A DNA stretch of 64,000 bases. It comes from an uncultured virus (IMG/VR IMGVR_UViG_2920970810_000002) (lineage: Duplodnaviria > Heunggongvirae > Uroviricota > Caudoviricetes). Position numbers and translations under genes: made by a program. Numbering within the stretch: the stretch's first letter is position 1; the number at the start of each line of letters is the position of its first letter. Below the pieces are notes generated by a model, which saw only the letters and a list, made by a program, of their open reading frames with translations, made no database searches and was not told the DNA's origin. Shown one piece after another: positions 1 through 40,696 of the stretch. The stretch lies in the IMG/VR virus record IMGVR_UViG_2920970810_000002; one strand, given 5' to 3'.

Positions 1-124
1 AATACACCATCGCCTACACCGGAAATTACACCACGAGCGCGGACGCTAACGTCGATTGTCCGCTCCAGCACCTCCGACCCGGGTCACACTCAGCAGGCGG
101 AAGCCTAACAATCCGAGGACGAGC

Positions 125-154
125 AAGGGTCGGCCCCTGTTGGCCGACCCTTTT
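125..154 (+). terminator. Putative intrinsic terminator hairpin
   Basis: AAGGGTCGGCC-cctgtt-GGCCGACCCTT perfect stem followed by a short T run. Confidence 0.5.
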
Positions 155-344
155 CCTGGACCTTCACGTCGCACTGGTCTCCCTCTTGCTCCTTCGGCTC
201 ATCTTTGGATCGGAAAGACGACGTTCAGCTTGCGAGACGGATTTCTGGGTTACGACTTTACCCCTTGCCAACCTCAGAGTGCCCGAGAATGGACTAGTTT
301 GCCCTGCGTTCTCCTGTTATGGTCAGAAAAACAGTGAGGGCTGG

Positions 345-545
345 ATGATGGCGGATACGCCTGACCAGGCCATGACCGTAAGGGACGTGGCAGGTTACCT
401 GAACGTCGACGAGAAGACCGTTTACAGGCTCGCCAAGCGCGGGGATCTGCCGGGCTTTAAGGTCGCCGGTGCATGGCGGTTTAAGCGGTCGGACCTCGAT
501 AGCTGGATCGATCAGCAGAAAAAAGCAGCGCAGAACAAGGCGTGA
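345..545 (+). CDS. Excisionase-like HTH (HTH_17) DNA-binding protein, probable regulator of the RM operon
   Basis: MTVRDVAGYLNVDEKTVYRLAKRGDLPGFKVAGAWRF; start moved to ATG 345 after GAGGG; 10 bp before hsdM. Confidence 0.8.
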   Translation: MMADTPDQAMTVRDVAGYLNVDEKTVYRLAKRGDLPGFKVAGAWRFKRSDLDSWIDQQKKAAQNKA

Positions 546-555
546 GGGGCGGCAC

Positions 556-2688
556 GTGAGCGATTTGAATATCAGCAACTTCATCTGGAATATTGCCGAC
601 GATGTCCTTCGAGACGTTTACGTCCGGGGGAAGTACCGAGATGTCATTCTGCCCATGACCGTTATTCGTCGTCTCGATGCTGTGCTGGAGCCGACGAAGG
701 AAGCGGTGCTCTCCATGAAGACCCAGCTCGATAAGGCGGGGGTCGCGAACCAGCATGCCGCTCTGTGCCAAGCATCGGGAGAGGCATTTTACAACACATC
801 TCAGTTCCGCCTGCGCGATTTGACCTCCAGAGCGCGACGACAGCAGCTGAAGGCCGATTTCGAGGCGTACCTCGACGGATTCTCGCCGAACGTTCAGGAA
901 GTGCTGGATAAGTTCAAGTTCCGCAATCAGATTCCCACGCTCGTCGAAGCAGATGTCCTCGGTTTCCTGCTCGAAAAATTTCTGGACCCCTCAGTTAACC
1001 TGAGCCCAAAGCCGGTCCTCCACCAGGACGGGAGCGTCCGGCTTCCCGGCCTCGACAACCATTCTATGGGCACGATCTTCGAGGAGCTCATCCGCCGCTT
1101 CAACGAAGAGAACAATGAGGAGGCAGGCGAGCACTTCACGCCGCGCGACGTGGTAGAGCTCATGGCCTACCTCATCTTCATGCCGATCGCCGACCACATC
1201 CAGTCGGGCACATACCTCGTGTACGACGGCGCTTGCGGCACGGGCGGCATGCTCACTGTCGCCGAAGAGACACTGATCAAGCTGGCAACCGACCACGGGA
1301 AGGAAGTTTCGGTTCACCTCTACGGACAAGAAGTCAACCCGGAAACATTCGCCATCAGCAAGGCCGACCTGATCCTGAAGGGAGAAGGCGTTGAGGCCGA
1401 AAACATGAAGTTCGGATCTACGTTGTCAGCGGATGCGTTCCCGTCCCGCGAGTTCGACTTCATGCTTTCCAATCCCCCCTACGGCAAGTCTTGGAAGACC
1501 GACTTGGAGCGCATGGGGGGGAAAAAAGAACTGCGTGACCCTCGCTTCGTGATCGAGCACGGAGGCGATCCTGAGTTCAGCCTGATCACCCGATCCAGCG
1601 ATGGCCAGATGGTGTTCCTGGCCAACATGCTCAGCAAGATGAAGAAGGCGTCTCCCCTTGGGAGCCGGATCGCCGAGGTCCATAACGGGTCCTCGCTTTT
1701 CACGGGAGATGCGGGTTCCGGTGAAAGCAACGTCCGCCGCTGGATCATCGAAAACGACTGGCTCGAGGCCATCATCGCCCTGCCGCTGAACATCTTTTAC
1801 AACACTGGCATCGCAACCTACATCTGGGTCTTGAGCAATCGCAAGGCCGAGAACCGCAAGGGCAAGGTACAGCTCATTGACGCCACCGCTTGGTTCAAGC
1901 CGCTCCGCAAAAATCTCGGGAAAAAGAACTGCGAACTCGGCGTTGACGATATCAAACGCATCTGTGACGCGTTCCTCCTACAGAAGGAAGACGAGACGTC
2001 CAAGGTCTTCCCAAACGAGGCGTTCGGCTATTGGAAGATCACAGTCGAGCGTCCCTTGCGCTTGAAGGCGGAGCTGACGGAAGGAGCCTTACGGCGATTC
2101 CGCAAGACGTGCTCCGAAGCGGGAGAAAGCGATCTCGTCCGCGCCATCGAGGCGGTGGCGGAAGCCCGTGGTCCGGGCCCGCATTTGGACTTCAATGCCT
2201 TCGTTGCCGAGGTGGAGGATGTCGCCAGCTCGCTTGGCCTCCGTATGACGGCCAAGCGGCAGAAGCTGCTCATGTCGGCGCTCGGCCAGAAAGATGCCGC
2301 AGCGGAACCGGTGATCCGCAAGACCTCGAAGCCGAAGGCGGGGTCGGATGCGACGCGGGAAGCGCTGTATGGCAGCTATCACACGACGGTTGGCGGCAAA
2401 GCGTCGGTCGTGGAGTATGAGCCTGACACCGAGCTCAGGGATACCGAACAGGTACCGTTCCTCGAAGACGGCGGCATCGAAGCCTTCTTCCGGCGCGAGG
2501 TATTGCCGCATGCCCCCGACGCTTGGATCGACGCCTCGAAAACGGTGATTGGTTACGAAATTTCGTTCACGCGGCATTTCTACAAGCCGCAGCCGCTGCG
2601 CACACTCGATGAAATCGAGGCCGATATCCGAGCGCTGGAGAAAGAGACGGAGGGCTTGCTCGAAGACGTCCTCATGGGAGGGCACTAA
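556..2688 (+). CDS. hsdM: Type I RM methyltransferase subunit
   Basis: [23 protein letters not shown], motif [12 protein letters not shown], motif IV NPPY; GTG start at 556 inferred. Confidence 0.95.
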
Positions 2689-2690
2689 GA

Positions 2691-4487
2691 ATGGCCACCC
2701 AGCGCTACTCCGTCACTCCCCATCCGATCGAAACGCTTCTGACTTGGGTGAAGTCCGGTGAGATTGCGATCCCCGAGATCCAGCGTCCGTTCGTGTGGGA
2801 TGCGACGAAGGTCCGGAACCTGCTTGACTCCCTCTATCAGGGCTATCCGGTCGGATACCTCATCGCCTGGCGAAATCCATCCGTCCGGCTGAAGGACGGT
2901 ACGACATCGTCCGGCAAGCGCATCCTGATCGACGGGCAGCAGCGCGTGACGGCGCTGATGGCGGCGCTGCTCGGACAAGAGGTGCTGACCAAGGACTACG
3001 AGACCGTCCGGATCAGGATTGCGTTCCATCCAGTCGAGGAGCGGTTCGAGGTTTCGAACCCCGCGATCCGCAAGGACGCGGCCTGGATTCCCGATCTCGC
3101 TGCGGTCTTCTCTCCTGATGCCAGCCTCACCGAGCTGACAGACGAGTATTCCGAACGTAACCCCGATGCCGACCGCAAGCAGGTTTCGCGCATCCTGGAA
3201 CGCGTCCGGAAGATCATCAACAACCACGTCGGCATCATCGAGCTGGCCGAAGACCTCGACATCGAAACCGTGACCGAGATCTTCATCCGGGTGAACTCGG
3301 CCGGTGCGTCGCTTAGCCAAGCGGATTTCGCGATGTCGAAGATCGCGGCCAACGACACCTACGGCGGCAACATGCTGCGCAAGGCCATCGACTATTTCTG
3401 CCATCTGGCCGTCGCGCCCGAGTTCCTCTCGCGCATCGAGAAGGGCGACAAGGCATTCGCCTCGTCCGAATTCCTCCCGAAAATGCGGTGGCTGAAGGAC
3501 GTCAACGACGACCTCTACGACCCTTCCTACACCGACATGCTGCGCGTGGCATTCACGTCCGAGTTCCGGCGCGGCAAGCTGCAGGATCTCGTGGCCTTGC
3601 TATCAGGGCGGAACTTCGAGACCAAGCAGTATGAGGAAGCTGTCGCCGAGGAGGCGTTCGCCCGCCTGAAGACCGGCGTTCTCAACTTCATCAACAAGAC
3701 GCACTTCGATCGTTTGACGATGATTCTGCGCTCGGCCGGGTTCATCACTTCGAACCTCATCCGCAGCCAGAATGCCATCAACTTCGCCTACATCCTCTAC
3801 CTGCGCGGCCGTGCGGAAGGCATGCCGGCTGCCGACATCGAGCGGCTGGTAAGACGCTGGTATGTCATGTCGCTGCTAAGGGGACGCTACTCCGGCAGCC
3901 CGGAGACGGCGTTCGATTTCGATATCCGACAGATTGAAGCGCGCGGCCTTACGTCCTATTGCGAGGCGGTTATCGATGCGGAGCTCCCTGAGAGCTTCTG
4001 GTCCACGCTGCTCCCGCAGGAGATGGATACCTCCTCGGCATCGAGCCCCTACTTCCTCGTCTACCAGGCGGCACAGGTGAAGCTAGGGGACCTCGGCTTC
4101 CTGTCGCGGGATATCACCGTGCGCGACCTGTTGCTGAATCGCAGCGACGTGCATCACGTCTACCCGCGCAACCACCTGAAGAACCAGGGGCTGACGCGGG
4201 GGCGCTACAACCAGATCGCCAACTTTGTCCTGGCCCAGAGCGAGATCAACATCGCCATCGGCGACAAAGCGCCCGAGGTCTACTTCGCCGAGCTGGCCGA
4301 GCAGTGCAACGGCGGGCCAAGGAAGTACGGCGGCATCACGGACATGGCCGAGATGCGGGCCAATCTCCGCATGAGCTGCCTGCCCGAAGCGCTGCTCGAT
4401 GGGGAAATTCCCGATTTTGGAGACTTCCTCGAAGCGCGCCGAAAGCTGATGGCAGCGAAGATCAAGACGTACTTCGAAGGGCTTTGA
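2691..4487 (+). CDS. GmrSD-like (DUF262 + C-terminal HNH) modification-dependent restriction nuclease
   Basis: [25 protein letters not shown] (DUF262 motifs); DVHHVYP...NQIANF (HNH-like). Confidence 0.85.
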
Positions 4488-4528
4488 GATGCGGCGGTGG
4501 GCAAGCGACAGGCAGGGGGAGAACGGAA

Positions 4529-5575
4529 ATGGCTGAGCGGGACGATCTTCTCGCGTCCATCGCGGCGACGACGGCCGACTATCGTGAGGCTGATGGGGAA
4601 GCCCCGACGCCAGAGCGTATCGAGCGTTGGGTCGGTCAGTTCGACGCCGCAGTTCAGCTGCCAATTCTGCGGGAGATGGACCACGTCCTGAAGCAGACCT
4701 ACTTCTCCCGCGCGAGAACTGCGAAATTTCTAGCCGGACTGTTTCAGACCAAAGAGCTGGTTGGCGAAGATCCGTGCGCGTTCTGGAGGAGCGTCAAGTT
4801 TCTCGACATCCAAGGCGGCGGGGCAAGCCAGAAGGAGATGCTCGCTCTGTTCAGCAAGTTGCTCAAGGCGAATTGCGGTTTCGAAGTCTCCGAGTGCGGT
4901 AAGGACGCGGAGGTCTTTGTTTACATTGATGACGCGACATTCACAGGAAACCGCGTTAAGCAAGACATCGAGAAATGGATCGCCGGAGACGCGCCCGCGA
5001 AAGCCACAGTGCACATAGTAATGATCGCAATGCACACTGGTGCCAGATATTATGCGGAACAGCACAACAAGGGAAACATACTGAAGGCGGCGAAGGACGC
5101 CGGGAAGGATATCACCTTTCATTGGTGGTGCGAGCTAGATCTCGAAAATCAGAGAGCTCACACTGATTCGTCAGACGTGTTGCGGCCTGTTCGTATCCCA
5201 GATGACGCGGCAGTCGCGGAATACGTGGGAGCGATGACCCACAAGCCACACCTGCGAACGCCGGGACAGGTCGGTGGAAAGGGAATTTTTTCAAGTGATG
5301 AAGCGCGCCAGCTTTTGGAAGATGAATTTCTGAAGGCCGGTGTGCGCATTCGGCAGATGTGCCCGAACCTGAATAAGTATCAGCGCCCATTGGGAAACAT
5401 GCTCCTCGAAACGCTCGGTTTCGGCTCGCTGATCGTAACCTTCAGAAATTGCCCCAACAATGCGCCGCTGGCGCTGTGGGCGGGGGATCCTTGGTATCCG
5501 CTGTTCCCCCGCACGACGAACAGCGACACGTCGCTGCGCAGGTTCATGGCGATGCTGGCACAGGAAGACTTCTGA
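4529..5575 (+). CDS. Phosphoribosyltransferase-like protein, candidate toxin/effector
   Basis: PRPP-loop-like VFVYIDDATFTGNRV; C-terminal NCPNNAPLALW...WYPLFPR; TGATG coupling to the next gene. Confidence 0.65.
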   Translation: MAERDDLLASIAATTADYREADGEAPTPERIERWVGQFDAAVQLPILREMDHVLKQTYFSRARTAKFLAGLFQTKELVGEDPCAFWRSVKFLDIQGGGASQKEMLALFSKLLKANCGFEVSECGKDAEVFVYIDDATFTGNRVKQDIEKWIAGDAPAKATVHIVMIAMHTGARYYAEQHNKGNILKAAKDAGKDITFHWWCELDLENQRAHTDSSDVLRPVRIPDDAAVAEYVGAMTHKPHLRTPGQVGGKGIFSSDEARQLLEDEFLKAGVRIRQMCPNLNKYQRPLGNMLLETLGFGSLIVTFRNCPNNAPLALWAGDPWYPLFPRTTNSDTSLRRFMAMLAQEDF

Positions 5576-7701
5576 TGGCCCAGCCCAGCCAGGTTCGCAC
5601 ATACCATCCAGCGGAGAGCGCCGTCTTCCTTAAGACGAACGAGCGCTTTGGCGGGCTGTCGAACATGGCGCCGGGCTTCCCGATTGTCCTGAACGGCGTG
5701 CGGATCCGCACGTCGGAGGCACTCTACCAGGCCTGCCGTTTCCCGCGCCGGCCGGACGTCCAGCGCCAGATCATCGACGATCCGAGCCCCATGACCGCAA
5801 AGATGCGGAGCAAGCCGTTCCGCTCCGACACCCGGCCGGACTGGGATGCGGTGCGGGTGAAGATCATGCGCTGGTGCCTGCGCGTGAAGCTGGCGCAGAA
5901 CTGGCAGACCTTCGGCAAGCTGCTGCTGTCCACGGCGGACATGCCGATTGTCGAGAAGAAGGTCCGCCGCAAGGACTTCTGGGGAGCCACGGAGCAGCCG
6001 GACGGCACACTCGTCGGCATGAACGTGCTGGGTCGCCTGCTGATGGAGCTGCGCGAGCAGTTGAAGGGCGACGAGGCGGAGAGCCTGCGGTTCATCGAGC
6101 CGCTGGCCATTCCCGACTTCCTGCTGTTTGGAGAGCCCATCGAGGCCGTGCAGGCCCCGAACAATGCGCAGATTCCGGGTTGGGCCGCGCGGCAGTCGCC
6201 TGCACCCGTCGCCGCTCCGCCGCCCAGCGATCCCCAGCCATCCCTGTTTGAGCAACCAATGAATTCCGAGACCAAGCCCGCACCCGCCCATTCAGCCGCC
6301 GACAGCAATAGGCGCCGCGGCGCTTTAGGGCGTTTTCCGCAGTACCGAGACAGCGGTCTGCCCTGGCTTGGTGAGATCCCGGAGCATTGGGATGTGCGTC
6401 GCAACGGTCGTCTTTTCGCTGAGCGCGTCGAGACCGGCTTTGAGGACTTGCCGATCCTGGAGGTATCGTTGCGGACGGGCGTGCGCGTGCGCGATATGGA
6501 GAATGGCGCGCGGAAACAGCAAATGGCGGACCGCAGCAAGTACAAGCGCGCAGCCAAGGGCGACGTTGCCTACAACATGATGCGGATGTGGCAGGGCGCG
6601 GTGGGTGTTGCGCCTGTGGATGGCCTGATCAGCCCTGCCTATGTCGTGGCGCGCCCGTTCCCAGAAGTTGATCCGCGCTACTACACCTATCTCTTCCGCA
6701 CCACCGCCTACATGCGTGAGGTGAACAAGTTCTCGCGCGGCATCGTCTCGGACCGCAACCGGCTCTATTGGGACGAGTTCAAGCAGATGCCGTCTGCGTT
6801 TCCTCCGACTGAGGAGCAGACAAGAATTGCCGATTTCCTCGACGCACATGGGCGCCTCGCCGCGCGCCTGATCCGCAACAAGCGGCGGCTGATCGGGCTA
6901 TTGAACGAGCAAAAGCAGGCGATCATCAACCGGGCCGTCACGCGCGGCCTGAACCCTGACGCCCCGATGAAGCCCACTGGCATCGACTGGATGCCCGAGG
7001 TTCCAGCCCATTGGGAGGTCAAGCGGCTGAAAACACTGGTCCGCAACGTCACGGAACAAACGAACTCGTTGCGCGAGGGGGAAACCTACATCGCATTGGA
7101 ACATGTGAAGAGCTGGACAGGTGAGATTACCCCACCAGGCGATGATATTGCTTTCGATAGCCAAGTGAAGCGTTTCGCCGCGAATGATGTACTATTCGGC
7201 AAGCTCCGTCCTTACCTTGCCAAGGTGACCCGCCCCGAACAGCCTGGCGTTTGTGTTGGCGAGTTTCTGGTGTTGAGGCCCACGGAGGAAGCACCCATGG
7301 CTGAGTTCCTTGAGGTAAAGCTTCGCTCCAAGACCATTATCGATATCGTGAATAGCTCCACCTTTGGGGCCAAGATGCCGCGAGCTGAGTGGGGCTTTAT
7401 CGGCAATCTCCGCTTCGCATTTCCACCCAACGATAAAGAACAGGCGGAAATTCTGGCTTCGATTTCGGCGGAGACCAGCACGCTCAGCAATGCAATCAGT
7501 CGAACCGAAAACGAGATCACACTGATCAGCGAATATCGCGAGCGCCTGATTGCCGATGTTGTCACCGGCAAGCTGGACGTGCGCCACATTGAGATCGCCG
7601 CGCCGGTGGATGAGCCGATTGCCGACGAGGATGACGCACTGGACGACGTGTTGGAAGACGGCGATGCCGAAGCGATGGAGGGGGCCGATGCCGACGACTG
7701 A
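5575..7701 (+). CDS. hsdS: NADAR domain fused to type I RM specificity subunit
   Basis: N-terminal FGGLSNM, TSEALYQA, DFWG, GMNVLGRLLMELR (NADAR/YbiA); Pro/Ala linker; HsdS repeats YRDSGLPWLGEIPEHW and MKPTGIDWMPEVPAHW; LIADVVTGKLDV; acidic tail. Confidence 0.9.
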   Translation: MAQPSQVRTYHPAESAVFLKTNERFGGLSNMAPGFPIVLNGVRIRTSEALYQACRFPRRPDVQRQIIDDPSPMTAKMRSKPFRSDTRPDWDAVRVKIMRWCLRVKLAQNWQTFGKLLLSTADMPIVEKKVRRKDFWGATEQPDGTLVGMNVLGRLLMELREQLKGDEAESLRFIEPLAIPDFLLFGEPIEAVQAPNNAQIPGWAARQSPAPVAAPPPSDPQPSLFEQPMNSETKPAPAHSAADSNRRRGALGRFPQYRDSGLPWLGEIPEHWDVRRNGRLFAERVETGFEDLPILEVSLRTGVRVRDMENGARKQQMADRSKYKRAAKGDVAYNMMRMWQGAVGVAPVDGLISPAYVVARPFPEVDPRYYTYLFRTTAYMREVNKFSRGIVSDRNRLYWDEFKQMPSAFPPTEEQTRIADFLDAHGRLAARLIRNKRRLIGLLNEQKQAIINRAVTRGLNPDAPMKPTGIDWMPEVPAHWEVKRLKTLVRNVTEQTNSLREGETYIALEHVKSWTGEITPPGDDIAFDSQVKRFAANDVLFGKLRPYLAKVTRPEQPGVCVGEFLVLRPTEEAPMAEFLEVKLRSKTIIDIVNSSTFGAKMPRAEWGFIGNLRFAFPPNDKEQAEILASISAETSTLSNAISRTENEITLISEYRERLIADVVTGKLDVRHIEIAAPVDEPIADEDDALDDVLEDGDAEAMEGADADD

Positions 7702-10660
7702 CACCAGTGAAAAAGGCCTCGAAGCCCTGATCGTCCGTTCGCTGATCGACGAGGCGGGTTATGTCGCAGGCGACTCGACGGATTTCGACCGGGACCACGC
7801 TCTTGATGTCGCAAAGCTGTTCGACTTCCTGAACGCTACGCAGCCAGAGGCTGTGGAGGCGCTGGGGATCGGTGTGGACGGCCCGAAGCGCCTGCAATTC
7901 CTGCATCGGCTGCAGGGCGAGATCGCCAAGCGCGGTGTTATCGACGTGCTACGCAACGGTGTGAAGCACGGCCCGGGCTCGGTGGAACTGTTCTATGGCA
8001 CGCCCACGCCGGGGAACGCGAAGGCGGAGGCGCTGTTCGCCGCCAACGTCTTCAGCGTCACCCGCCAGCTGCACTATTCCAAGGACGCGACCAAGCTGTC
8101 GCTGGATGCGGGATTGTTCATCAACGGCCTGCCCGTCGCCACGTTCGAACTCAAGAACAGCCTGACCAAGCAGACGGTCGAGGACGCGGTCGAGCAGTAC
8201 AAGCGCGACCGCGATCCGAAGGAGCTGCTGTTCCAGTTCGGCCGCTGCGTCGTCCATTTCGCCGTGGACGACCACGAGGTGCGGATGTGCACGCACCTGA
8301 AGGGGAAGGCGTCCTGGTTCCTGCCGTTCAACAAGGGCTGGAACGATGGCGCGGGCAACCCGCCGAACCCCCACGGGCTGAAGACCGACTACCTCTGGAA
8401 GGAATACCTGACGAAGCGGAACCTCACCGACATTCTGGAAAACTACGCCCAGGTGGTCGAGGAGGTCGACGAGCGCGGCAAGAAGAAGCCGCCCAAGCAG
8501 GTCTTCCCGCGCTTCCATCAGCTGGACGTGGTGCGCAAGCTGCTGGCCGACGCCGAAGCCAAGGGGGCGGGCAAGCGCTACCTGATCCAGCACTCGGCCG
8601 GTTCGGGCAAGAGCAACTCGATTGCCTGGCTCGCCCACCAGCTGATCGGGCTGGAGACCGGCGGCAAGACGACCTTCGACTCCGTCATCGTGGTCACCGA
8701 CCGCCGTGTTCTCGACAAGCAGATCCGCGATACGATCAAACAGTTCGCGCAGGTTTCATCCGTGGTGGGACACGCCGAAAAGTCTGGCGACCTGCGGGCC
8801 TTCCTGAAGGCCGGCAAGAAGATCATCATCACGACGGTCCAGAAGTTCCCCTTCATCCTAGACGAGATCGGCGACGAGCATCGCGGGCGAACCTTTGCCA
8901 TCATCATCGACGAGGCTCATTCCAGTCAGGGTGGCCGGACCGCAGCGAAGATGAACATCGCGCTCGCCGCGAATGGCGCCGAGGAGGAAGAGGAGACGGT
9001 CGAGGACGCCATCAACCGTCTGATGGAGGCGCGGAAGGTGCTGCCGAACGCCAGCTATTTCGCGTTCACCGCCACGCCAAAGAACAAGACCCTGGAGGTT
9101 TTCGGTGCGCCGGTCCCGCAAGGGGACAAGATCAAGCACGTACCCTTCCACAGCTACACGATGAAGCAGGCGATTCAGGAGGGCTTCATCCTCGACGTGC
9201 TGAAACACTACACGCCGGTCGACAGCTATTATCGGCTTATGAAGACGGTGGAGGACGACCCCAAGTTCGACACCAAGCGGGCACAGAAAAAGCTGCGCAA
9301 GTATGTGGAATCCCATGACCACGCGATCCGCAAGAAAGCCGAGATCATGGTCGATCACTTCCACGACCAGGTCATGGCGTATCGCAAGATCGGCGGCGCG
9401 GCCCGGGCGATGGTCATCACCAACGGGATTCAGCGCGCAATCCAGTACTTCCACGCGTTCCAGGAATATCTGAAGGAACGCAAGAGCCCCTATCAAGCCA
9501 TCGTCGCCTTTTCGGGGGAGCATGAATACGGCGGCCAGAAGGTCACTGAAGCGACCTTGAACGGCTTTCCAAGCAGCCAGATCGAGGAGCTGATCCAGAA
9601 GGACCCGTACCGGTTCCTGATTGTCGCGGACAAGTTCCAGACCGGCTATGACGAGCCGCTGCTGCACACGATGTATGTGGACAAGACGCTGTCCGGCGTG
9701 AAGGCGGTGCAAACGTTGTCGCGCTTGAACCGGGCGCATCCACAAAAGCACGACACCTTCGTGCTGGATTTCATGAACGATTTCGAGGCCATCAAGACGT
9801 CGTTCGAGCCCTATTACCGGACCACGATCCTCAGCGAGGAAACCGACCCAAACAAGCTGCACGATCTGAAGGCCGCGCTGGATGGCTACCAGGTCTATGC
9901 ATGGGACCAGGTGGAGGACCTGGTGGCGCTCTACCTCGGCGGAGCGGACCGGGACAAGCTCGACCCGATTCTCGATGCCTGTGTTGCCGTCTACAAGACC
10001 GACCTCGATGAGGATGGGCAGGTCGATTTCAAGGGCAAGGCGAAGGCGTTCACGAGGACATACGGCTTCTTGGCCGCGATCCTCCCCTACAGCAATGCGG
10101 ATTGGGAGAAGCTATCCATCTTCCTCAACTTCCTGACGCCCAAGCTGCCGGCGCCTGAGGAGCAGGACCTGTCCAAGGGGATCCTTGAAGCGATCGACAT
10201 GGACAGCTACCGCGTCGAAGCCCAGGCAACCATGGCCATCGTGCTGCCGGACGCGGACGCCGAAATCGGACCGGTCCCTACTGCTGGCGGCGGTCGCAAA
10301 CCCGAGCCCGAGCTCGATCTGTTGAGCAACATCCTCAAGACGTTCAACGAGATGTTCGGCAACATCGACTGGAAGGACCGGGACAAAATCGGGAAGGTCA
10401 TCGCGGAGGAGCTTCCGGCTAAGGTGTCGGCCGACAAGGCGTATCAGAACGCCATGAAGAACTCGGACAAGCAGAACGCGCGCATTGAGCACGACAAGGC
10501 GCTTGAACGTGCCGTGATCGAACTGCTGTCCGACCACACGGAACTGTTCAAGCAGTTCAGCGACAACCCCTCGTTCAAGAAGTGGCTTTCCGAGACGATC
10601 TTCGCGGCAACCTATGCGGACACTGCGTCAAAAGCCAGCTCGGCTTCTATTGGCAGTTGA
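7688..10660 (+). CDS. hsdR: Type I RM restriction subunit
   Basis: NGLPVATFELKN nuclease motif, QHSAGSGKS, DEAH, FTATP; start MPTTDTSEKGLE overlaps the end of hsdS. Confidence 0.95.
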   Translation: MPTTDTSEKGLEALIVRSLIDEAGYVAGDSTDFDRDHALDVAKLFDFLNATQPEAVEALGIGVDGPKRLQFLHRLQGEIAKRGVIDVLRNGVKHGPGSVELFYGTPTPGNAKAEALFAANVFSVTRQLHYSKDATKLSLDAGLFINGLPVATFELKNSLTKQTVEDAVEQYKRDRDPKELLFQFGRCVVHFAVDDHEVRMCTHLKGKASWFLPFNKGWNDGAGNPPNPHGLKTDYLWKEYLTKRNLTDILENYAQVVEEVDERGKKKPPKQVFPRFHQLDVVRKLLADAEAKGAGKRYLIQHSAGSGKSNSIAWLAHQLIGLETGGKTTFDSVIVVTDRRVLDKQIRDTIKQFAQVSSVVGHAEKSGDLRAFLKAGKKIIITTVQKFPFILDEIGDEHRGRTFAIIIDEAHSSQGGRTAAKMNIALAANGAEEEEETVEDAINRLMEARKVLPNASYFAFTATPKNKTLEVFGAPVPQGDKIKHVPFHSYTMKQAIQEGFILDVLKHYTPVDSYYRLMKTVEDDPKFDTKRAQKKLRKYVESHDHAIRKKAEIMVDHFHDQVMAYRKIGGAARAMVITNGIQRAIQYFHAFQEYLKERKSPYQAIVAFSGEHEYGGQKVTEATLNGFPSSQIEELIQKDPYRFLIVADKFQTGYDEPLLHTMYVDKTLSGVKAVQTLSRLNRAHPQKHDTFVLDFMNDFEAIKTSFEPYYRTTILSEETDPNKLHDLKAALDGYQVYAWDQVEDLVALYLGGADRDKLDPILDACVAVYKTDLDEDGQVDFKGKAKAFTRTYGFLAAILPYSNADWEKLSIFLNFLTPKLPAPEEQDLSKGILEAIDMDSYRVEAQATMAIVLPDADAEIGPVPTAGGGRKPEPELDLLSNILKTFNEMFGNIDWKDRDKIGKVIAEELPAKVSADKAYQNAMKNSDKQNARIEHDKALERAVIELLSDHTELFKQFSDNPSFKKWLSETIFAATYADTASKASSASIGS

Positions 10661-10847
10661 ACCAGCGCATGGCGGTTTGGATCAGATGATCATGATCCAC
10701 GCTTGTGGCCTCTTGGTAGAACGCGTCGATCTCTTGCTGCGAGAGGCCCGCTTCTTTTGCGGCCCGTCGGCACAAGCCAAGGATCATGAAGGCATTGCTG
10801 TCATGTCCAGTCAGCTGGACTGTTATGTTGGGATACTTGGGGGGCAT
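10647..10847 (-). CDS. Small phage-type hypothetical protein (66 aa)
   Basis: GGAGGAG RBS; VQLTGHDSNAFMILG resembles small phage proteins; converges on hsdR. Confidence 0.65.
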   Translation of the reverse strand: MPPKYPNITVQLTGHDSNAFMILGLCRRAAKEAGLSQQEIDAFYQEATSVDHDHLIQTAMRWFNCQ

Positions 10848-10886
10848 TGACCGGCTCCTCCAGCGCAGTGGACACGACGCCTAGAA

Positions 10887-10911
10887 CGCTCGTTTCTTCA
10901 TTATTATCAAC
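10887..10911 (-). promoter_or_regulatory. GTTGATAA-N12-GAGCG promoter-like motif, copy 1
   Basis: Same motif and spacing as 35411-35435; each lies upstream of small phage genes. Confidence 0.5.
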
Positions 10912-11017
10912 AGGATAAGGCGCTTTTGGTTCGCGCTTTTCCCATTGCCGTGTTTAAGGGCTTCGGCCGCGACAACTTCGTAAGCGTCCGGTCGAAACCG
11001 TTGTCGGCAATGGCCAG

Positions 11018-11072
11018 TTTCGGGATGCGGGTGGCGGCACCGGAATGACCGGGTTTGGGTGGATAGCGGAAT
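11018..11072 (+). repeat. Cargo-flanking motif X, copy 1
   Basis: TTTCGRGAT-N18-ATGRCCGG-N3-TGGGTGGAWAGCGGAAT, shared with 14628-14682. Confidence 0.75.
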
Positions 11073-11201
11073 TTCCGTTTCGACCTTGCCGAGACTTGCG
11101 CAGCATTCTAAACCATCGGCGACGGGGCGAAGCAACCTCCCGTTCAGGCCGAGAAAAGCCCAAGCGTTGCCTCGTAGCCTTGCCGTTGTTGGCAAGGTCT
11201 T

Positions 11202-12536
11202 TTGTGCGAGGTCATCTTGGCGTCATCGGCTCTCACCCATTCCGTCGCTCTTGTCGATCTGCTGCGGGCGTTCACCCGCATCGGCCTGCTCAGCTTTGGC
11301 GGACCTGCGGGGCAGATCGCGCTGATGCACCGGGAATTGGTGGAAGAGCGCAAATGGGTGGCCGAGGAGGATTTCCTCCACGCGCTCAATTTCTGCCACC
11401 TGCTCCCCGGCCCCGAAGCGCAGCAGCTCGCCACATGGATCGGGTGGCGGCTGCATGGATGGCGCGGCGGGCTGGCCGCGGGGCTGCTGTTCGTCATTCC
11501 GGGCGCGGCCATCATTCTGGCGCTGTCGGTGCTCTATGCCATTGCCGCCAATCTCGCATGGGTCGAGGCGCTGTTTCTGGGCGTAAAGGCAGCAGTGCTT
11601 GCGATTGTGGTGCAGGCCTTGTTGCGGATTGCCGGACGTGCGCTCGATACGGGATTGAAGCGTGCGCTGGCGGTGGCCGCGTTTGTCGGACTCTTCCTGT
11701 TCGATCTGCCATTTCCGCTGATCGTGCTGGGTTCCGGGGTGATTGGAATGGCGGTCGCAGCGTGGCGCCCTGCCCTGTTGGCGCTGAAACCCACAGCACC
11801 CGCTGGCGATTTGCCCGAACGACCATGGCGCAGCACGATCATTTCGGTTGCCCTTTGGGGAGCGGTCTGGGCCGCGCCGATGGTGCTGATTGCGCTGACG
11901 CTGGGGCAGGATCACGTGCTGTGGGAAATCGGCGTATTCTTCTCGCAGCTCGCCATCGTCACCTTTGGCGGGGCTTATGCAGTGCTCGCCTACATGGCGC
12001 AGGAAGCGGTGCAGGGCTTCGGGTGGCTACGTCCCGGTGAGATGGCCGATGGGCTTGGCCTTGCGGAAACCACGCCGGGGCCGCTGATCTTGGTGACGCA
12101 ATTCGTCGGTTACCTCGCGGCCTTCCGTGCGCCGGAACCGTTCTCGCCTTTCCTCGCGGGATTGCTGGGGGCGGGGCTGACCACGTGGGTGACGTTCGCG
12201 CCGTGCTTCATGTGGATCTTTGCCTTCGCGCCGTGGATCGACCGACTGGGTAACGCTGTGCGGTTGAAGGGCGGGCTCGCAGCAGTGACGGCGGCGGTTG
12301 TGGGCGTCATCGCCAACCTCACCGCATGGTTTGCGCTGCATGTGCTGTTTGCTGAGGTGGGCCAGCGCCAATTCGGTCCGCTGCGGTTATACTGGCCGGA
12401 CCCGGCGAGCTTCGAATGGCGCGCAGGCGTGCTGGCAGCGCTCGCCTGCGCACTGGTGTTCGGGCTGAAATGGTCGGTGCTGCGGGTTCTGATGGCCGCC
12501 GCGCTGGGCGGCATGGTTCTGGTTTTGGCAATCTGA
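11202..12536 (+). CDS. chrA: Chromate efflux transporter (CHR family); start approximate
   Basis: IGLLSFGGPAGQIALM, LLPGPEAQQLA, TFGGAYAVL, AETTPGP; two-domain membrane protein. Confidence 0.93.
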   Translation: MCEVILASSALTHSVALVDLLRAFTRIGLLSFGGPAGQIALMHRELVEERKWVAEEDFLHALNFCHLLPGPEAQQLATWIGWRLHGWRGGLAAGLLFVIPGAAIILALSVLYAIAANLAWVEALFLGVKAAVLAIVVQALLRIAGRALDTGLKRALAVAAFVGLFLFDLPFPLIVLGSGVIGMAVAAWRPALLALKPTAPAGDLPERPWRSTIISVALWGAVWAAPMVLIALTLGQDHVLWEIGVFFSQLAIVTFGGAYAVLAYMAQEAVQGFGWLRPGEMADGLGLAETTPGPLILVTQFVGYLAAFRAPEPFSPFLAGLLGAGLTTWVTFAPCFMWIFAFAPWIDRLGNAVRLKGGLAAVTAAVVGVIANLTAWFALHVLFAEVGQRQFGPLRLYWPDPASFEWRAGVLAALACALVFGLKWSVLRVLMAAALGGMVLVLAI

Positions 12537-34046: not shown

Positions 34047-35318
34047 TTACGCATAGCTGGCGACATCGTTGAGCAGGCGGGCGCGCAGCATGGTGCCCTC
34101 GGCCTCGTCGAAGGCGGCGCGCCACTCGTAGCGGGCCTCGACCCCGCCGGGGCCGCTGATCGCGTATTTGCTGCGCGGCAGGAACACCCGCGGCAGCTCG
34201 AAGCGCAGGGCATAGCCCTCGGGCATGGTGAGGCCATATTCGAGCGCGACCGGATCGCCATCGCTCGCCTCGCCCATGAGCGTCGCCCCATCGAAGCGCA
34301 GCGCCAGCGTGCCGCTGGCGGTGGCCAGCGTCGGATCGGCGGCATCGATCTTGCCGTCATCGCGGATCGTGCGGATACGCTCGAGACTGTTGGAGAAGGT
34401 GAGACTGCCGCCGGTGACCCCGGCGAGCGGCTGCCCACCGCGGCGCACGAAGCCGCGCGCCTGGGCGAAGCGCCGCGGCGCCCAGCTGGCGGGCGCGGCA
34501 TCGACGGTGGTGGCGGAGCGCTCCTCGCCCTGCGCCACCAGCTGCAGGCGGGCATTGGCCGGGCCGTCCTGGCCGAGCTCGAACTCGATGCTTTCGGCCA
34601 TGGTGCCGAGATGGCGGAAGAACACCGGGGTGGTGAGCTTGGGATGGCCGATCTCGATCGTGTGGCTCGGGATCTCGTCGGCCCCGCTCTGCCAGAGGTG
34701 CTCATGCCCGCCACCGGTGAGCCGCGGACCCGAGGGCGAAGCATGCGAGGCGGCGATGGTGAAGGCATTGCCAGAAGGCCCGGCCGTATCGAAGACGATC
34801 TCGAGCCGCTGGGTGCTGGCCGGACGGCTGTAGGTGCACTTGCTGATCTCGGGATTGGCCGAGGCGTTGAGATTGGTGACCAGCTGGTCGATGGTCTGGG
34901 TCACGGTCGCCTGGATCTGGGTCTGCAGCGCCCCCGGCGTGCCGGTGACGAAGGTCCACACCACCCCGTTGAGCGTGATCGTCTGCCCCGCGGCAGGGTT
35001 GGCGGCGAAGGTGATCGATCCGCGCGCGGCCACATTGCTGGTGACGGGCAGGCCGAACAGCGCGGTCAGCCAGAAGCCGGTGCCGCGCAGGTCGATCGGC
35101 ACATCGATCTGCCCCTCGTCGGTGACGAGGCCGCGCCAGGGATCCTGCGCATTGCGCCCGCGCCCGAGCAGCGGATCCTCGCCGAGCGGCTGCATCGCGG
35201 ACAGGTCGGTCGAGCGGAAGTCGAGGCTGCGCCAGCCGCTCGATGGCATCACGCCATAGCTGGTCTCGCGGGCGATCTTCAGCGTCGCGTCCGCGCCATA
35301 GGCACGCAGTTTGGGCAT
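34047..35318 (-). CDS. Tail tube (major tail) protein with inserted domain
   Basis: RAYGADA, LLGRGR, GFWLTALFG, ISGPGGVEA. Confidence 0.85.
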   Translation of the reverse strand: MPKLRAYGADATLKIARETSYGVMPSSGWRSLDFRSTDLSAMQPLGEDPLLGRGRNAQDPWRGLVTDEGQIDVPIDLRGTGFWLTALFGLPVTSNVAARGSITFAANPAAGQTITLNGVVWTFVTGTPGALQTQIQATVTQTIDQLVTNLNASANPEISKCTYSRPASTQRLEIVFDTAGPSGNAFTIAASHASPSGPRLTGGGHEHLWQSGADEIPSHTIEIGHPKLTTPVFFRHLGTMAESIEFELGQDGPANARLQLVAQGEERSATTVDAAPASWAPRRFAQARGFVRRGGQPLAGVTGGSLTFSNSLERIRTIRDDGKIDAADPTLATASGTLALRFDGATLMGEASDGDPVALEYGLTMPEGYALRFELPRVFLPRSKYAISGPGGVEARYEWRAAFDEAEGTMLRARLLNDVASYA

Positions 35319-35410
35319 GGGTCATCTCCGGCAGGACTGGGGGACGGGAATGCCGCGCGGGCCATGCGCGCGCGGGACAGGATTATTGTTCCAAATCATG
35401 TGCTTGGTGA

Positions 35411-35435
35411 GTTGATAAGCAGCGCGGACAGAGCG
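35411..35435 (+). promoter_or_regulatory. GTTGATAA-N12-GAGCG promoter-like motif, copy 2
   Basis: Matches 10887-10911. Confidence 0.5.
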
Positions 35436-35488
35436 AACAGGATGACACGCCGCGAGTTGCGGACGTGCATCGCAAGGGAGACCAAGCC

Positions 35489-35752
35489 ATGAGCCAGACC
35501 ACCACCGCCCGCCATGAGGCCCGCGCCGACGGGGGGTGCGCCGACGGGGCCCGCCGCAATCAGCAACAGGCCCTTTCCGCCTTCATCGCCGTCAAGGCCG
35601 AGATCGACACGCTGCTGGGCCAGCTGCGGGCGCTGAGCGACGAGCACTTCCATGCCGCGCCCGAGAGCGTGAACTGGGCCCATGTCGGCAGCATCGCCCA
35701 CGCCCGCAACCAGCTGCGCGAGGTCGCCCGCTTCCTCGGGATCGAAGGCTGA
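35489..35752 (+). CDS. Small phage hypothetical protein
   Basis: AFIAVKAEIDTLL...SDEHF...VNWAHVG; RBS present. Confidence 0.75.
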   Translation: MSQTTTARHEARADGGCADGARRNQQQALSAFIAVKAEIDTLLGQLRALSDEHFHAAPESVNWAHVGSIAHARNQLREVARFLGIEG

Positions 35753-35771
35753 GAGGCAGGGAGACCAAGCC

Positions 35772-35987
35772 ATGCCCCGCTATGTGGTCACAATCGAAAG
35801 CCGTCGCCGCAGCCGCGAGCTTGCGGCTTTCAGCGACCATATCGACGCGCGACGTGCGCTGCATGAGGCGCTCGAAGCAGCGTCCGCCTCGTCGCGCCGC
35901 ACCATCCACGGTCGGGTGACCGACAGCCAGACCGGGGACGTCATCACCCATGGCCGGGCATGGAATGGCTGGGTCGGGTTCATCTGA
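35772..35987 (+). CDS. Hypothetical protein
   Basis: Same 17-nt leader as the previous gene. Confidence 0.6.
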   Translation: MPRYVVTIESRRRSRELAAFSDHIDARRALHEALEAASASSRRTIHGRVTDSQTGDVITHGRAWNGWVGFI

Positions 35988-36010
35988 CAGGACAGGGAAG
36001 GAACAGCATC

Positions 36011-36718
36011 ATGAAACTCTCCGACACGCAGCTCGTGGTGCTCGCCGCAGCCGCGCAGCGCGAGGATGGCAATCTCCTGCCGCTCCCCGCCAGCCTTTCC
36101 GGCGGCCTGCGCGCGCGCAACGCCGCGCGGGTGGTGGAAGCGCTCAAGCGTCGCGGGCTGATCGCCGAGACCGTCACCAAGAGCTGGGCCAAGGCGGATC
36201 CTGCGTGCAACGCCTTCTGGCGCAACGACGAGGACGGCCGCGCCACCCTGCTCCACATCACCCACGCAGGCCTTGCCGCGATCGGGATCGCGCCGGAACC
36301 GGAACCGGATGGCCCGCAGGAGACCAGCGCCGCGCCCGATGCCGCAGCGCCAACGGCGACTGGCTGTCCGCACTGCGATGGTGCGGGCCGCCACCGGCAT
36401 CAGGCCGGCACCGAGCTGGAGCACACCACCCGCTGCCATGTGTGCGATCCCGAACCGGAGACCGCAACGGTCAACGCCCCGCCTGCCGCTGCGCCGCCGC
36501 GCCGCGTTCGCCAAGGCACCAAGCAGGCCGCGCTCATCGCCATGCTCGAGGCGCCCGAAGGCGCCAGCGTGGCCGAGATCAGCGCCGCGCTGGGCTGGCA
36601 GCCCCACACCGTGCGCGCCGCGCTCTCCCATGCGCTCCCCCGCCGCCTCGGCCTTGCCGTCTCCTCGCAGAAGGAGGAGGGCCGGGGCCGGGTCTATCGT
36701 CTGGCAGCGGCAGGCTGA
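36011..36718 (+). CDS. DUF3489-type winged-helix protein
   Basis: MKLSDTQLVVLAAAAQRED; GTKQAALIAML...GWQPHTVR...GRVYRL. Confidence 0.85.
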   Translation: MKLSDTQLVVLAAAAQREDGNLLPLPASLSGGLRARNAARVVEALKRRGLIAETVTKSWAKADPACNAFWRNDEDGRATLLHITHAGLAAIGIAPEPEPDGPQETSAAPDAAAPTATGCPHCDGAGRHRHQAGTELEHTTRCHVCDPEPETATVNAPPAAAPPRRVRQGTKQAALIAMLEAPEGASVAEISAALGWQPHTVRAALSHALPRRLGLAVSSQKEEGRGRVYRLAAAG

Positions 36719-36721
36719 GCC

Positions 36722-36916
36722 ATGGCCAAGGCCAAGCTGCACGACCGTCTGCTCGCCGCTCTCCTCGCCGCGGGCGAGCGCCGTGTGCCCGAAGCGGCCA
36801 CGCAGCGCACCACCGTGCCCACCTGCAGCCATCCCAAGGCGCCGCAGGGCTGGCACTACCACGTCGGCCACGCCGGGGCCCTGCGCGTCGGTCCCACCGC
36901 CAGCGCCAGCCGCTAG
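36722..36916 (+). CDS. Hypothetical protein
   Basis: Starts 3 bp after the DUF3489 gene. Confidence 0.45.
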   Translation: MAKAKLHDRLLAALLAAGERRVPEAATQRTTVPTCSHPKAPQGWHYHVGHAGALRVGPTASASR

Positions 36917-37001
36917 GGCGAGCGAGACGCTCAGGGAGACGCTGCTCGGGATCGTGCGGCTGAAGCAGGTGGACTCCGACGGGCTGACTCGACAAGCCTG
37001 A

Positions 37002-37027
37002 CTTGACATGTCAAGCAAGGCTTGACA
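37002..37027. promoter_or_regulatory. higBA operator/promoter
   Basis: Overlapping palindromes CTTGACATGTCAAG and TGTCAAGC-aag-GCTTGACA; contains TTGACA. Confidence 0.65.
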
Positions 37028-37036
37028 GGGTGGGTC

Positions 37037-37321
37037 ATGGAGATCGAAAGCATCGTCCACAAGGGCCTTCGCCGTTTTTTCGAGACGGGCGATCCCAAGG
37101 GCCTTGTCGGCGATGTCGCGCGGATCCGGCGGATGCTCGCCTTCATCGATGCTGCGGCAAGCTTCGAAGAACTGGCGCTTCCGCCCAATTTCGGGTTGCA
37201 TCCGCTCAGCGGCGACAAGGCCGGACGCTGGGCCATGAGCGTGACCCGCAACTGGCGGCTGACCTTTGTGAAGCGCGATGCCTACACCATCGCCGAAGTC
37301 GATCTGGAGGATTACCACTGA
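37037..37321 (+). CDS. higB: HigB (RelE-family) toxin
   Basis: HKGLRRFFETG, LHPLSGD, SVTRNWRLTF, DLEDYH. Confidence 0.93.
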   Translation: MEIESIVHKGLRRFFETGDPKGLVGDVARIRRMLAFIDAAASFEELALPPNFGLHPLSGDKAGRWAMSVTRNWRLTFVKRDAYTIAEVDLEDYH

Positions 37322-37623
37322 TGGCGCTTTCCATGCATCCCTCCTTGGCGGTTCATCCCGGCGAATGGCTGCGGCACGAGGTGCTCACGCCTTACGGGGT
37401 GAGCATCAATCGGCTGGCGCGCAGCTTCCATGTCTCGCGCCAGGCGCTGAGCAGCCTGCTCAACGGGCGGGCCGCGCTGTCGGCCGAGATGGCGATCCGC
37501 TTCGAGAAGGCCTTCGGTATCCGGGCCGAGACGCTCATGCGCATGCAGACGGCTCACGACATGGCGCGTGCCCGCGCACGGGCCGACGAGATCGTGGTCG
37601 AGGACCTGCGCCCCGCGGCCTGA
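37321..37623 (+). CDS. higA: HigA antitoxin
   Basis: HPGEWL, LSAEMAIRFEKAFG, MRMQ. Confidence 0.93.
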   Translation: MALSMHPSLAVHPGEWLRHEVLTPYGVSINRLARSFHVSRQALSSLLNGRAALSAEMAIRFEKAFGIRAETLMRMQTAHDMARARARADEIVVEDLRPAA

Positions 37624-37772
37624 TCGCTCATGGACGTTGCCGGGACATTGCCTTATGACGCCGCCGCACCTCCGGTGGTTTCGACCGCTGGGCGCGGGGC
37701 CTCTTCGGGAGGCCCCTGCTTTTCGGGCCTCATGACGCGCCCATTCTGCCCAATTGCCTGACCGTCTGCCGC

Positions 37773-38204
37773 TCAGCCGCCGAGCGGATCGCTGACCAGA
37801 TATTCGGCGGTCAGCACGATCCTCGCGCTGAGCAGCGGTGCGGCGCCCTCGATGGCCAGCACGCCGATCTCCGGGGCGGAGGGGACGAGCGTCTCGGCCA
37901 GCCCGCCGAGCGTCTCGTCTGCCGTGAGCGCGGCGCCGATCGCGCCAAGCAGGGCATCGAGCCCCGCCTCGCCGCCGCCACCGGCAGGCTGGGACATATA
38001 GGCCTCGAGCTCGATGCGGTGGCGGTACCATTCGCGCCGCGGGTTCAGCGTCACCTCGGGCTCGCCGGGCTCGCCGTCGCGCAGGATGACGAGCCCCTCT
38101 GCCGGCACCTTCTCCGGTAGTGCGGCATTGCGCCGCACCGGCGCTGACAGCCGAGCGCCGAGCTGCGCGGCGAGCGCGGCAAGGATGGCCTCCCGCTTCG
38201 ACAT
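37773..38204 (-). CDS. Tail terminator-like protein
   Basis: REAILAAL, ILRDGEPGEP, DETLGGL; position before the tail tube gene. Confidence 0.7.
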   Translation of the reverse strand: MSKREAILAALAAQLGARLSAPVRRNAALPEKVPAEGLVILRDGEPGEPEVTLNPRREWYRHRIELEAYMSQPAGGGGEAGLDALLGAIGAALTADETLGGLAETLVPSAPEIGVLAIEGAAPLLSARIVLTAEYLVSDPLGG

Positions 38205-38223
38205 GGCATCTTCCCGATCGTCG

Positions 38224-39176: not shown

Positions 39177-39178
39177 GC

Positions 39179-40201: not shown

Positions 40202-40234
40202 GGGGTCGGGTCTCCTTGGGCTGGAACGGGCATG

Positions 40235-40264: not shown

Positions 40265-40295
40265 CGGTCAGAGAGTCAGAGGGGAAACGTGAAGA

Positions 40296-40685: not shown

Positions 40686-40696
40686 GGATCACCTCC

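Follow-up and report, generated by a model that had tools for sequence, protein, structure and literature searches.

A PRTase-NADAR pair inside a type I restriction-modification operon

The window analysed here is a 64,000-nucleotide stretch of DNA from an uncultured virus record (IMG/VR IMGVR_UViG_2920970810_000002). At its start lies a type I restriction-modification (RM) operon in which a phosphoribosyltransferase (PRTase) gene (protein P0001) precedes a gene for a NADAR domain joined through a linker to the HsdS specificity subunit (protein P0002; Table 1); related loci are labelled below with L-numbers. A sequence-only reading of this DNA had singled out the PRTase-like gene, its TGATG coupling and the uninterrupted NADAR-linker-HsdS frame, and all three were confirmed. 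The first gene runs from the ATG at 4529 to the TGA at 5575 (348 amino acids), matches the PRTase-CE profile and yields a model with a type I PRTase fold. The second is a stop-free frame of 708 amino acids whose parts were recognised by domain profiles and by its predicted model.

On every feature examined, the sequence of the PRTase and NADAR pair identifies it as the known system DS-32. P0001 matches NF053875 (DS32_1) over the full profile (411.7 bits, cut-off 250), and P0002 likewise matches NF053876 (DS32_2; 274.4 bits, cut-off 240). The gene order is that of DS-32, with NADAR following the PRTase at once in one operon through the TGATG overlap, and the Asp of the phosphoribosyl pyrophosphate (PRPP) loop that is essential in DS-32 is present as D134. 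DS-32 is an E. coli anti-phage system from the DefensePredictor study (bioRxiv 10.1101/2025.01.08.631726, PMC13092281; here and below, statements on cited papers refer to their accessible text and tables). The preprint describes a PRTase with a NADAR like the DarTG antitoxin and proposes swapping of toxin-antitoxin partners (10.1101/2025.01.08.631726). In the supplement (PMC13092281), -log efficiency of plating was 3.70 and 3.89 for Bas26 and, with the D137A mutant, 0.40 for the same phage; the values were 0.62 and 1.64 for T5, 1.60 and 0.26 for RB69, and at most 0.9 for SECphi18, Bas67 and Candy. A hand count along the listed sequences places D137 of DS-32A at the first of the two Asp residues in its YIDD loop, equivalent to D134 here; DS-32B has Pro at position 137. 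In the E. coli homologue, the active site of the PRTase is thus a catalytic component of defence, and by homology probably here as well. A defence role, as proposed earlier for this locus, is supported by DS-32 membership and by the need for the homologous Asp in protection. Moreover, because the cloned DS-32 unit protects E. coli without RM partner genes (PMC13092281), the RM tether is dispensable for defence. No mechanism for DS-32 was found in the literature searched, including the accessible DefensePredictor text and supplement tables, and supplement file 10 holds no interface predicted template-modelling (ipTM) value for DS-32. The earlier view that the architecture is not a characterised system holds only in part: the pair has been described as DS-32, while the NADAR-HsdS fusion is unreported in the literature searched.

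The PRPP-binding loop, VFVYIDDATFTGN at residues 129-141, and the type I PRTase fold of the predicted model place P0001 in the PRTase superfamily. Foldseek matched the model to type I PRTases with a best E value of 1.4e-3, none being at E<=0.001. In the VIA comparison, the model aligned with uracil PRTases at Z 9.0 and a root-mean-square deviation of 3.8-4.0 Å over 124-127 residues, and all of the top 16 rows had the PRTase fold. D134, D135, R142, R243, R286 and R328 were invariant in 90 of 90 paired sequences, from which broken, partial and duplicate loci had been excluded. P0001 consists of a single PRTase-CE domain, for which PADLOC gave no ShosT profile match and a weak match to the retron III-A PRTase (E 5e-10).

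The NADAR domain matches PF08719 at residues 18-164 (75 bits, cut-off 35) and scores 62.7 bits on TIGR02464, under the cut-off of 73.7. All of the NADAR/YbiA N-glycosidase residues are present, namely catalytic E48, basic R55 (Lys in the characterised enzymes) and acidic E127; with W136, they are invariant in the same 90 paired sequences. By spacing and the YbiA alignment, these four residues correspond to E43, K50, E125 and W133, with which the P. nicotianae NADAR holds the distal ribose and the phosphate (PMC11543638). A K-to-R NADAR mutant retained hydrolysis in vitro and lost rescue from DarT1 (PMC11543638). The HsdS part matches PADLOC Specificity_I (residues 253-672, 352 bits), and among known structures the model of P0002 resembles HsdS (E 7e-18), YbiA and a NADAR. 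An assembly or frameshift artefact was rejected as the source of the fusion: a contig from an independent run (X2 record 8) covers 5306-7900 with 39 substitutions and no gap across the NADAR-HsdS junction, and the two parts are also joined in frame and at full length in 61 of 106 related loci.

The operon order is hsdM-gmrSD-PRTase-NADAR::hsdS-hsdR, with an HTH_17 gene at its head and all genes on the + strand. It has the full set of type I RM genes as open frames: hsdM, an hsdS with two target recognition domains (TRDs) and the conserved regions, and hsdR. The GmrSD_N/DUF262 gene between hsdM and the PRTase gene, whose top PADLOC match is HEC-05 (114 bits), occurs in some related operons and is cleanly missing from that position in others (e.g., L009, L011 and L033). 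We regard the operon as a mobile island, because its GC content is 59-61% (window 1-12000, the contig start) versus about 70% at 20-48 kb, a search with P0001 gave a match in 0 of 40 relatives of the host, and other hosts carry operons with 99% identical HsdM and HsdR. A promoter and terminator scan of 1-11200 gave no signal above shuffled sequence, and blastn of 4529-6150 against the phage collection gave no match. A chromate transporter gene follows the RM operon at 11202-12536. The same genome (G000, contig C9, about 34200-41100) carries a second, distant type I RM locus with no NADAR.

Table 1. Features of the RM operon and its embedded pair (window coordinates; residue numbers are those of the encoding protein)
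Feature	Coordinates	Strand	Basis and remarks
Excisionase-like HTH_17 protein, operon head	348..545	+	Pfam PF12728, 65.5 bits; precedes hsdM in many related loci
hsdM, type I methyltransferase	556..2688	+	N6_Mtase and HsdM_N; PADLOC MTase_I, 846 bits
GmrSD_N/DUF262 protein, second embedded optional defence gene	2691..4487	+	PF03235, 105 bits
PRTase-CE / DS-32A-family PRTase, 348 amino acids, predicted writer/effector	4529..5575	+	PF24390, 191 bits; NF053875
Exchangeable PRTase core, residues 59-285 (predicted)	4703..5383	+	Identity, synonymous-divergence jump, replaced middles
PRPP-binding loop, residues 129-141; D134/D135 at 4928-4933	4913..4951	+	D134 and D135 invariant in 90/90 homologues
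TGATG stop/start overlap, predicted translational coupling	5573..5577	+	Sequence: TGA 5573-5575, next ATG 5575-5577
NADAR-linker-HsdS fusion, 708 amino acids	5575..7701	+	One stop-free frame; profile matches, model
DS-32B-family NADAR, YbiA (Glu) type; E48, R55, E127, W136	5596..6141	+	NF053876, 274 bits, cut-off 240; YbiA 2b3w alignment
Disordered Pro/Ala-rich linker, residues 203-250	6181..6324	+	Predicted local distance difference test (pLDDT) < 50; low conservation
QPSLF, beta-clamp-binding-type motif, residues 221-225	6235..6249	+	Kept in 110/119 fusion homologues
In-frame ATG (M229), possible internal hsdS start	6259..6261	+	Sequence; poorly conserved
HsdS: TRD1, conserved central region, TRD2, C-terminal conserved region	6331..7590	+	PADLOC; TRDs shuffled among near-identical operons
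hsdR	7688..10660	+	HSDR_N, ResIII, SWI2_SNF2, T1R_D3; 14-nt overlap with end of fusion gene

Distribution and partners of the fused NADAR

Co-occurrence was surveyed at 106 PRTase-anchored loci, 26 from genomes and the best 80 of 406 from metagenomes, which are the closest to the query and over-represent its own architecture. NADAR adjoins the PRTase in 104 of them, and the remaining 2 reach the contig end first, which supports an obligate pairing of the two. The loci comprise 61 full-length HsdS fusions, 3 that leave the contig within HsdS, 2 with a stop inside HsdS, 9 fusions to a DUF1156 methylase, 14 free NADARs, 5 other forms, 2 open, 8 with an incomplete or broken NADAR and 2 without NADAR; L024 is broken throughout. 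A search with fusion residues 1-240 against proteins of 389-1239 amino acids gave 1009 matches, and nearly all of the 120 matches listed besides the query are about 700 amino acids long, with NADAR present and mostly with Methylase_S. Across 401 genomes sampled evenly from the class, the DS-32B cut-off was exceeded by 4 matches, one of them from this genome, and 4 of 4 were HsdS fusions behind a PRTase; a fifth NADAR match fell under the cut-off and had no PRTase. The fusion frame is kept over at least five phyla-level host groups and two RM families, the second of which (L045 and L120) has a 38-40% identical HsdM.

The module is optional in its RM subfamily. Among genomes of the HsdR subfamily other than this one, 9 of 10 lack such a NADAR, and 7 of 7 fetched operons of this subfamily had no PRTase or NADAR match. 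Because these operons lack both genes, and in several hsdS directly follows hsdM, the DS-32 cassette probably entered at the hsdS start.

The DUF1156 partner is the HmaB methylase, in the order hmaA - PRTase - NADAR::hmaB - hmaC. Hma/Type-1 BR loci with the embedded DS-32 pair and NADAR::HmaB are L074 (3471-14924), L086, L087, L100 and L021. Both genes of L074 exceed the DS-32 cut-offs, and HmaC of L074 and L100 has a Swt1-like HEPN domain. The paper on Type-1 BR reports nuclease backups, and its accessible text makes no mention of NADAR, YbiA or phosphoribosyl (PMC12839542).

Other tails were found among the top 150 representatives at 50% identity, which include 34 HsdS fusions, 6 DUF1156 fusions, 34 short proteins, 74 with other long tails and 2 PRTase-NADAR single chains. 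The tails of 59 of 79 flagged representatives were scanned, and most had no Pfam match. The named partners were ComEA HhH, HTH_17, DprA/PsyrA, DUF488, DUF4365, TIR, a peptidase and, by PADLOC and NCBIfam, the DarG C-terminal domain. Thus, the NADAR tail seems to fuse easily, yet its named partners lean to DNA-binding and antitoxin modules, which cuts both ways. Individual DS-32B-family NADARs (P0346, P0273, P0370, P0265 and P0376) are fused to the DarG C-terminal domain, DprA/PsyrA (in both orders), ComEA HhH and DUF488. P0315 and P0348 are natural PRTase-NADAR single chains, for which a read-through error is possible.

Free pairs were also found. In the plasmid collection, 7 records match both proteins, and 4 of 4 examined are free pairs; the free pairs L112 and L101 adjoin Gabija (GajA) and Hachiman (HamA and helicase) genes. 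In L096 (4503-14971), the pair belongs to a distantly related type I RM operon, and its NADAR has a nucleotidyltransferase as fusion partner instead of HsdS. In L048, L049 and L051, an hsdM fragment on one side and a vWA-PP2C-kinase triad on the other flank an intact pair, the linker motif and a short remainder of HsdS; in L048 (4711-13713), the decayed type I RM genes and intact DS-32 are followed by vWA, PP2C, kinase and helicase genes. In a NADAR tree made by a quick method, HsdS-fused, HmaB-fused and free forms are interleaved, with 44 of 89 inner branches unresolved and the number of origins unsettled.

No report of a NADAR-HsdS or NADAR-HmaB fusion was found in the literature searched, PMC9503650, PMC13712802 and 10.1101/2025.09.30.679545 included, with subscription papers and bioRxiv supplements mostly outside its reach. 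A figure legend in 10.1101/2024.01.29.577857 lists a NADAR-containing candidate, the candidate tables being beyond the reach of this search, and another domain, DUF4326, occurs fused to NADAR and also to RM parts (PMC7824862). From the sequences, the NADAR-HsdS fusion appears to be widespread, and it and the separate HmaB fusion of the same NADAR are apparently new.

A linker motif and an exchangeable PRTase core

The linker of the fusion carries QPSLF, and the pattern Q.[SDTGA]LF at this site, which underlies the count in Table 1, has 0 matches elsewhere in the same proteins. It is present in 56 of the 61 full HsdS-fusion loci, against a background of 0.003 expected per 80 residues in this genome, and lies 13-36 residues past the NADAR domain within otherwise unrelated linkers. 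A role of QPSLF as a DNA-level element was rejected, since its codons vary freely and synonymously at each position, and position 2 varies in amino acid as well. The bacterial clamp-binding consensus is QL(S/D)LF, usually near the C-terminus (PMC9690074). QPSLF agrees with it at 4 of 5 positions and lies in a linker predicted to be disordered and exposed, which is the sequence pattern of a clamp-binding peptide. QLSLF itself forms the C-terminal end of the free NADARs of L046 and L047, and a close variant forms that of E. coli DS-32B. The gene of the host clamp lies at 23599-24708 of contig C48 in G000. The fusion of NADAR to the DNA-recognition subunit, taken with this predicted clamp dock, is a hint that DNA carries the mark which one protein would write and the other erase. 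No report of a clamp motif in DS-32B was found within the same limits of the literature search.

The middle of the PRTase has a history different from that of its surroundings. Five operons (the window, L002, L003, L028 and L031) were compared, in which HsdM, HsdR and NADAR are 98-99% identical. Their cores fall into three alleles at 64-74% amino acid identity versus 91-100% at the PRTase ends, and synonymous differences are 0.3-0.6 in the core versus 0.06-0.13 in the flanks. The core of the window is closer to that of L001 (90%), whose HsdM is 87% identical. Because of the synonymous jump and this nearness to L001, recombination appears to have exchanged the core, and in contigs of runs X2 and X5 the middle is replaced in the same way. 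Over 276 pairs, which are not independent, core similarity followed neither the backbone (rho 0.05) nor TRD1 (rho -0.01) nor TRD2 (rho 0.18). A match of PRTase alleles to the RM recognition sequence was rejected: L031 and the window share TRD1 (100%) with cores that are 64% identical, and L002, L003 and L028 share a core (97-99%) with different TRDs. As judged from these alleles, the PRTase does not read the RM site. Between L033 and L098, NADAR is 96% identical and the PRTases are 76/40/68% identical by segment, and overall NADARs at 96-99% identity accompany PRTases with 40-73% identical cores. Because near-identical NADARs accompany such divergent cores, a tight co-evolved PRTase-NADAR interface is unlikely; this pattern would be expected if NADAR removes a shared product.

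The clamp-type motif, the HmaB fusion and the swapping of PRTase cassettes are additions to the sequence-only reading. These three, and the breadth of the HsdS fusion, were not found in print in the literature searched.

Possible mechanism and relation to known systems

A PRTase makes, and a YbiA-type NADAR breaks, the N-glycosidic bond to ribose-5-phosphate, so that a writer and an eraser would be the simplest pairing. The reading that we prefer, and to which we give about an even chance, is that DS-32 is a writer/eraser toxin-antitoxin pair acting at DNA, whose eraser is tethered to host DNA by the clamp motif and HsdS and is uncoupled from its target by infection. A DS-32 cassette would have entered a mobile type I RM operon at the hsdS start, its NADAR joining HsdS in frame, and the pair would act enzymatically, in a type IV-like manner. 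The PRTase would transfer ribose-5-phosphate from PRPP to a base nitrogen, and NADAR would hydrolyse this ribose-5-phosphate bond, keeping uninfected cells safe. With less certainty, the PRTase may act at the replication fork, on DNA or on a nucleotide; the clamp motif, aided in this variant by HsdS and the methylase complex, may hold the eraser on host DNA. Upon infection, the eraser would miss its target through clamp-free copying of phage DNA, host shut-off or a DNA mimic on HsdS, and persisting adducts would stall phage replication. The swappable PRTase core would be the part under phage pressure. A narrower version, which is tentative and which we think doubtful, is that the PRTase phosphoribosylates DNA bases and that self is marked by the eraser parked on the host sliding clamp and on its own methylase (HsdS, HmaB), such that phage DNA copied without the host clamp, or phage that blocks RM with a DNA mimic, would keep the adduct and fail to replicate. 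DNA phosphoribosylation was not described in the literature searched, which had the limits given above.

The preferred writer/eraser reading is favoured by the adjacency of NADAR in 104 of 106 loci, by the 2 natural single chains among 150 representatives, and by fusion partners of DS-32B-family NADARs that are often DNA-linked or antitoxin modules (HmaB, ComEA HhH, HTH_17, DprA/PsyrA and the DarG C-terminal domain). Several observations weigh against it. Those conflict PRTases that have been characterised have small metabolites as their targets: PRPP drops by about 50% under retron Eco11 (PMC12746101), and ShosT, which bound PRPP but no purine tested, disturbs purine metabolism (PMC11961720). 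Bas67 is barely affected by DS-32, the outcomes for T5 and RB69 are inconsistent across assays, and the accessible published text and tables on DS-32 report neither toxicity of DS-32A alone nor its rescue. The PRTase is acidic overall (isoelectric point 5.8). The strict motif is present in 0 of 9 HmaB fusions, 3 of 14 free NADARs, 15 of 34 HsdS-fused representatives and 24 of 150 representatives overall, with near variants, which are frequent, not included in these figures. NADAR tails are promiscuous, given the 74 of 150 representatives with other long tails, most without a Pfam match. Finally, the in-frame ATG of the linker could supply free HsdS; among 57 distinct fusions, 18 have no ATG in the linker and only 2 have no ATG, GTG or TTG.

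In a model that is compatible with the writer/eraser reading and would supply it with a trigger, the RM complex is bait, and Ocr/ArdA-type inhibitors acting on HsdS/M2S disable or displace the tethered NADAR, leaving the PRTase free to kill, as happens with PrrC or Ronin. In favour of this model, NADAR is joined, in two systems of unrelated kind, to a subunit that recognises or methylates DNA (HsdS in 61 of 106 loci, HmaB in 9 of 106), and 4 of 4 above-cut-off matches in the class genomes are HsdS fusions. Ronin provides a precedent, its RonA toxin being kept in check by HsdMS and set off by ArdA (10.1101/2023.04.06.535777). We consider it possible but doubtful, given that the cloned DS-32 unit defends without RM genes, that free pairs are common (14 of 106 loci and the plasmid records), that PRTase alleles do not follow TRD alleles, and that a DNA mimic would not necessarily silence an enzyme attached through a flexible tether of 50 residues. 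The earlier suggestion that loss of the RM genes would release toxicity is weakened: because NADAR lies N-terminal in the fusion, truncation of hsdS leaves it whole, and L048, L049 and L051 keep an intact pair in a decayed RM operon.

A metabolic drain is a further alternative, which we also think doubtful. Here, a futile cycle of PRTase and NADAR, or a toxic nucleotide made by the PRTase, would consume PRPP once a phage protein activates the PRTase, and NADAR would be a co-effector or would clear a small-molecule product, as YbiA does with riboflavin intermediates. The related retron III-A PRTase depletes PRPP, ShosT couples its PRTase to a hydrolase that drives it, the NADAR is of YbiA type (with the sub-cut-off TIGR02464 score given above), and single-chain PRTase-NADAR proteins exist, all of which is consistent with a drain. 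Left unexplained by it are the conserved clamp-type motif and the repeated fusion to DNA-binding subunits and to antitoxin domains of DNA toxins. Another alternative, likewise doubtful in our view, is that DS-32 landed in an hsdM-hsdS hot spot and lost a stop, the fusion giving co-expression without joint function: this fits the usual absence of the module from the RM subfamily (missing from 9 of 10 further genomes and from 7 of 7 operons fetched), the frequency of embedded genes in type I RM operons, the many partners of NADAR tails and the unfused HsdS of L096, but not the frame kept over at least five phyla-level host groups and two RM families, the stop inside HsdS in only 2 of 106 loci (L024 being broken throughout), the 18 of 57 fusions without a linker ATG, or a second fusion that is again to a methylase. 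These alternatives are not mutually exclusive.

This architecture offers a way to test what the acceptor of conflict PRTases (DS-32A, ShosT and retron III-A) is. The clamp motif of NADAR and its repeated fusion to subunits of DNA methylases suggest DNA or the fork as the target, and NADAR itself could be a reagent for releasing and identifying the adduct. The architecture also offers a test of whether an RM complex can stand guard by tethering an antidote instead of caging a toxin, and the natural PRTase alleles, which share an identical backbone, allow mapping of what phages select on. If DNA phosphoribosylation were true, the RM specificity subunit would double as an antitoxin carrier.

Compared with known systems, the pair is most like E. 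coli DS-32, sharing the PRTase-then-NADAR gene order, scores above the family cut-offs, the same PRPP-loop Asp and a clamp-like NADAR tail. It differs in that E. coli DS-32B is free, with 203 amino acids, in a standalone pair, whereas the present pair is part of a type I RM operon and its NADAR continues into HsdS. In DarTG1 (PMC11543638) and YarT-YbiA (PMC11125620), as proposed here, NADAR reverses an N-linked ribosyl modification made by a neighbouring toxin; the DarT1 target is guanine in single-stranded DNA (PMC11543638). By contrast, the neighbour and putative writer here is a PRTase that would use PRPP, not DarT or another ADP-ribosyltransferase using NAD+, and the NADAR is of the YbiA/Glu type with Arg at the K50/K95 site. 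ShosTA (PMC11961720) and PsyrTA resemble the proposed pair in having a PRTase toxin with an essential DD motif and a type IV antitoxin at DNA, and a DS-32B NADAR is found fused to PsyrA/DprA (P0273). However, ShosT has an extra pyrophosphatase domain and a DprA-like antitoxin that is not a hydrolase; P0001 is a single PRTase-CE domain, with no DprA in its operon. Retron III-A (Eco11; PMC12746101) shares the Pfam PRTase-CE domain, the PNNxP motif and weak PADLOC matches. Unlike the retron, the operon here has no reverse transcriptase (no such family among its proteins in profile scans), msDNA or C-terminal winged helix-turn-helix domain, and NADAR would provide the control.

PrrC is a toxin held by the type I RM complex. 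The present locus resembles PrrC, and Ronin (10.1101/2023.04.06.535777), in having effector genes within a type I RM locus, possibly as a backup against anti-restriction proteins. In those systems the toxin is held by the RM complex, whereas here the putative antidote is the fused part, and the effector belongs to an unrelated family that also works without RM. Hma/Type-1 BR (PADLOC HmaABC; PMC12839542) is a second host of the same cassette (L074, L086, L100 and others). Perhaps, then, this pair combines a DarTG1-like logic with a PrrC/Ronin-like position.

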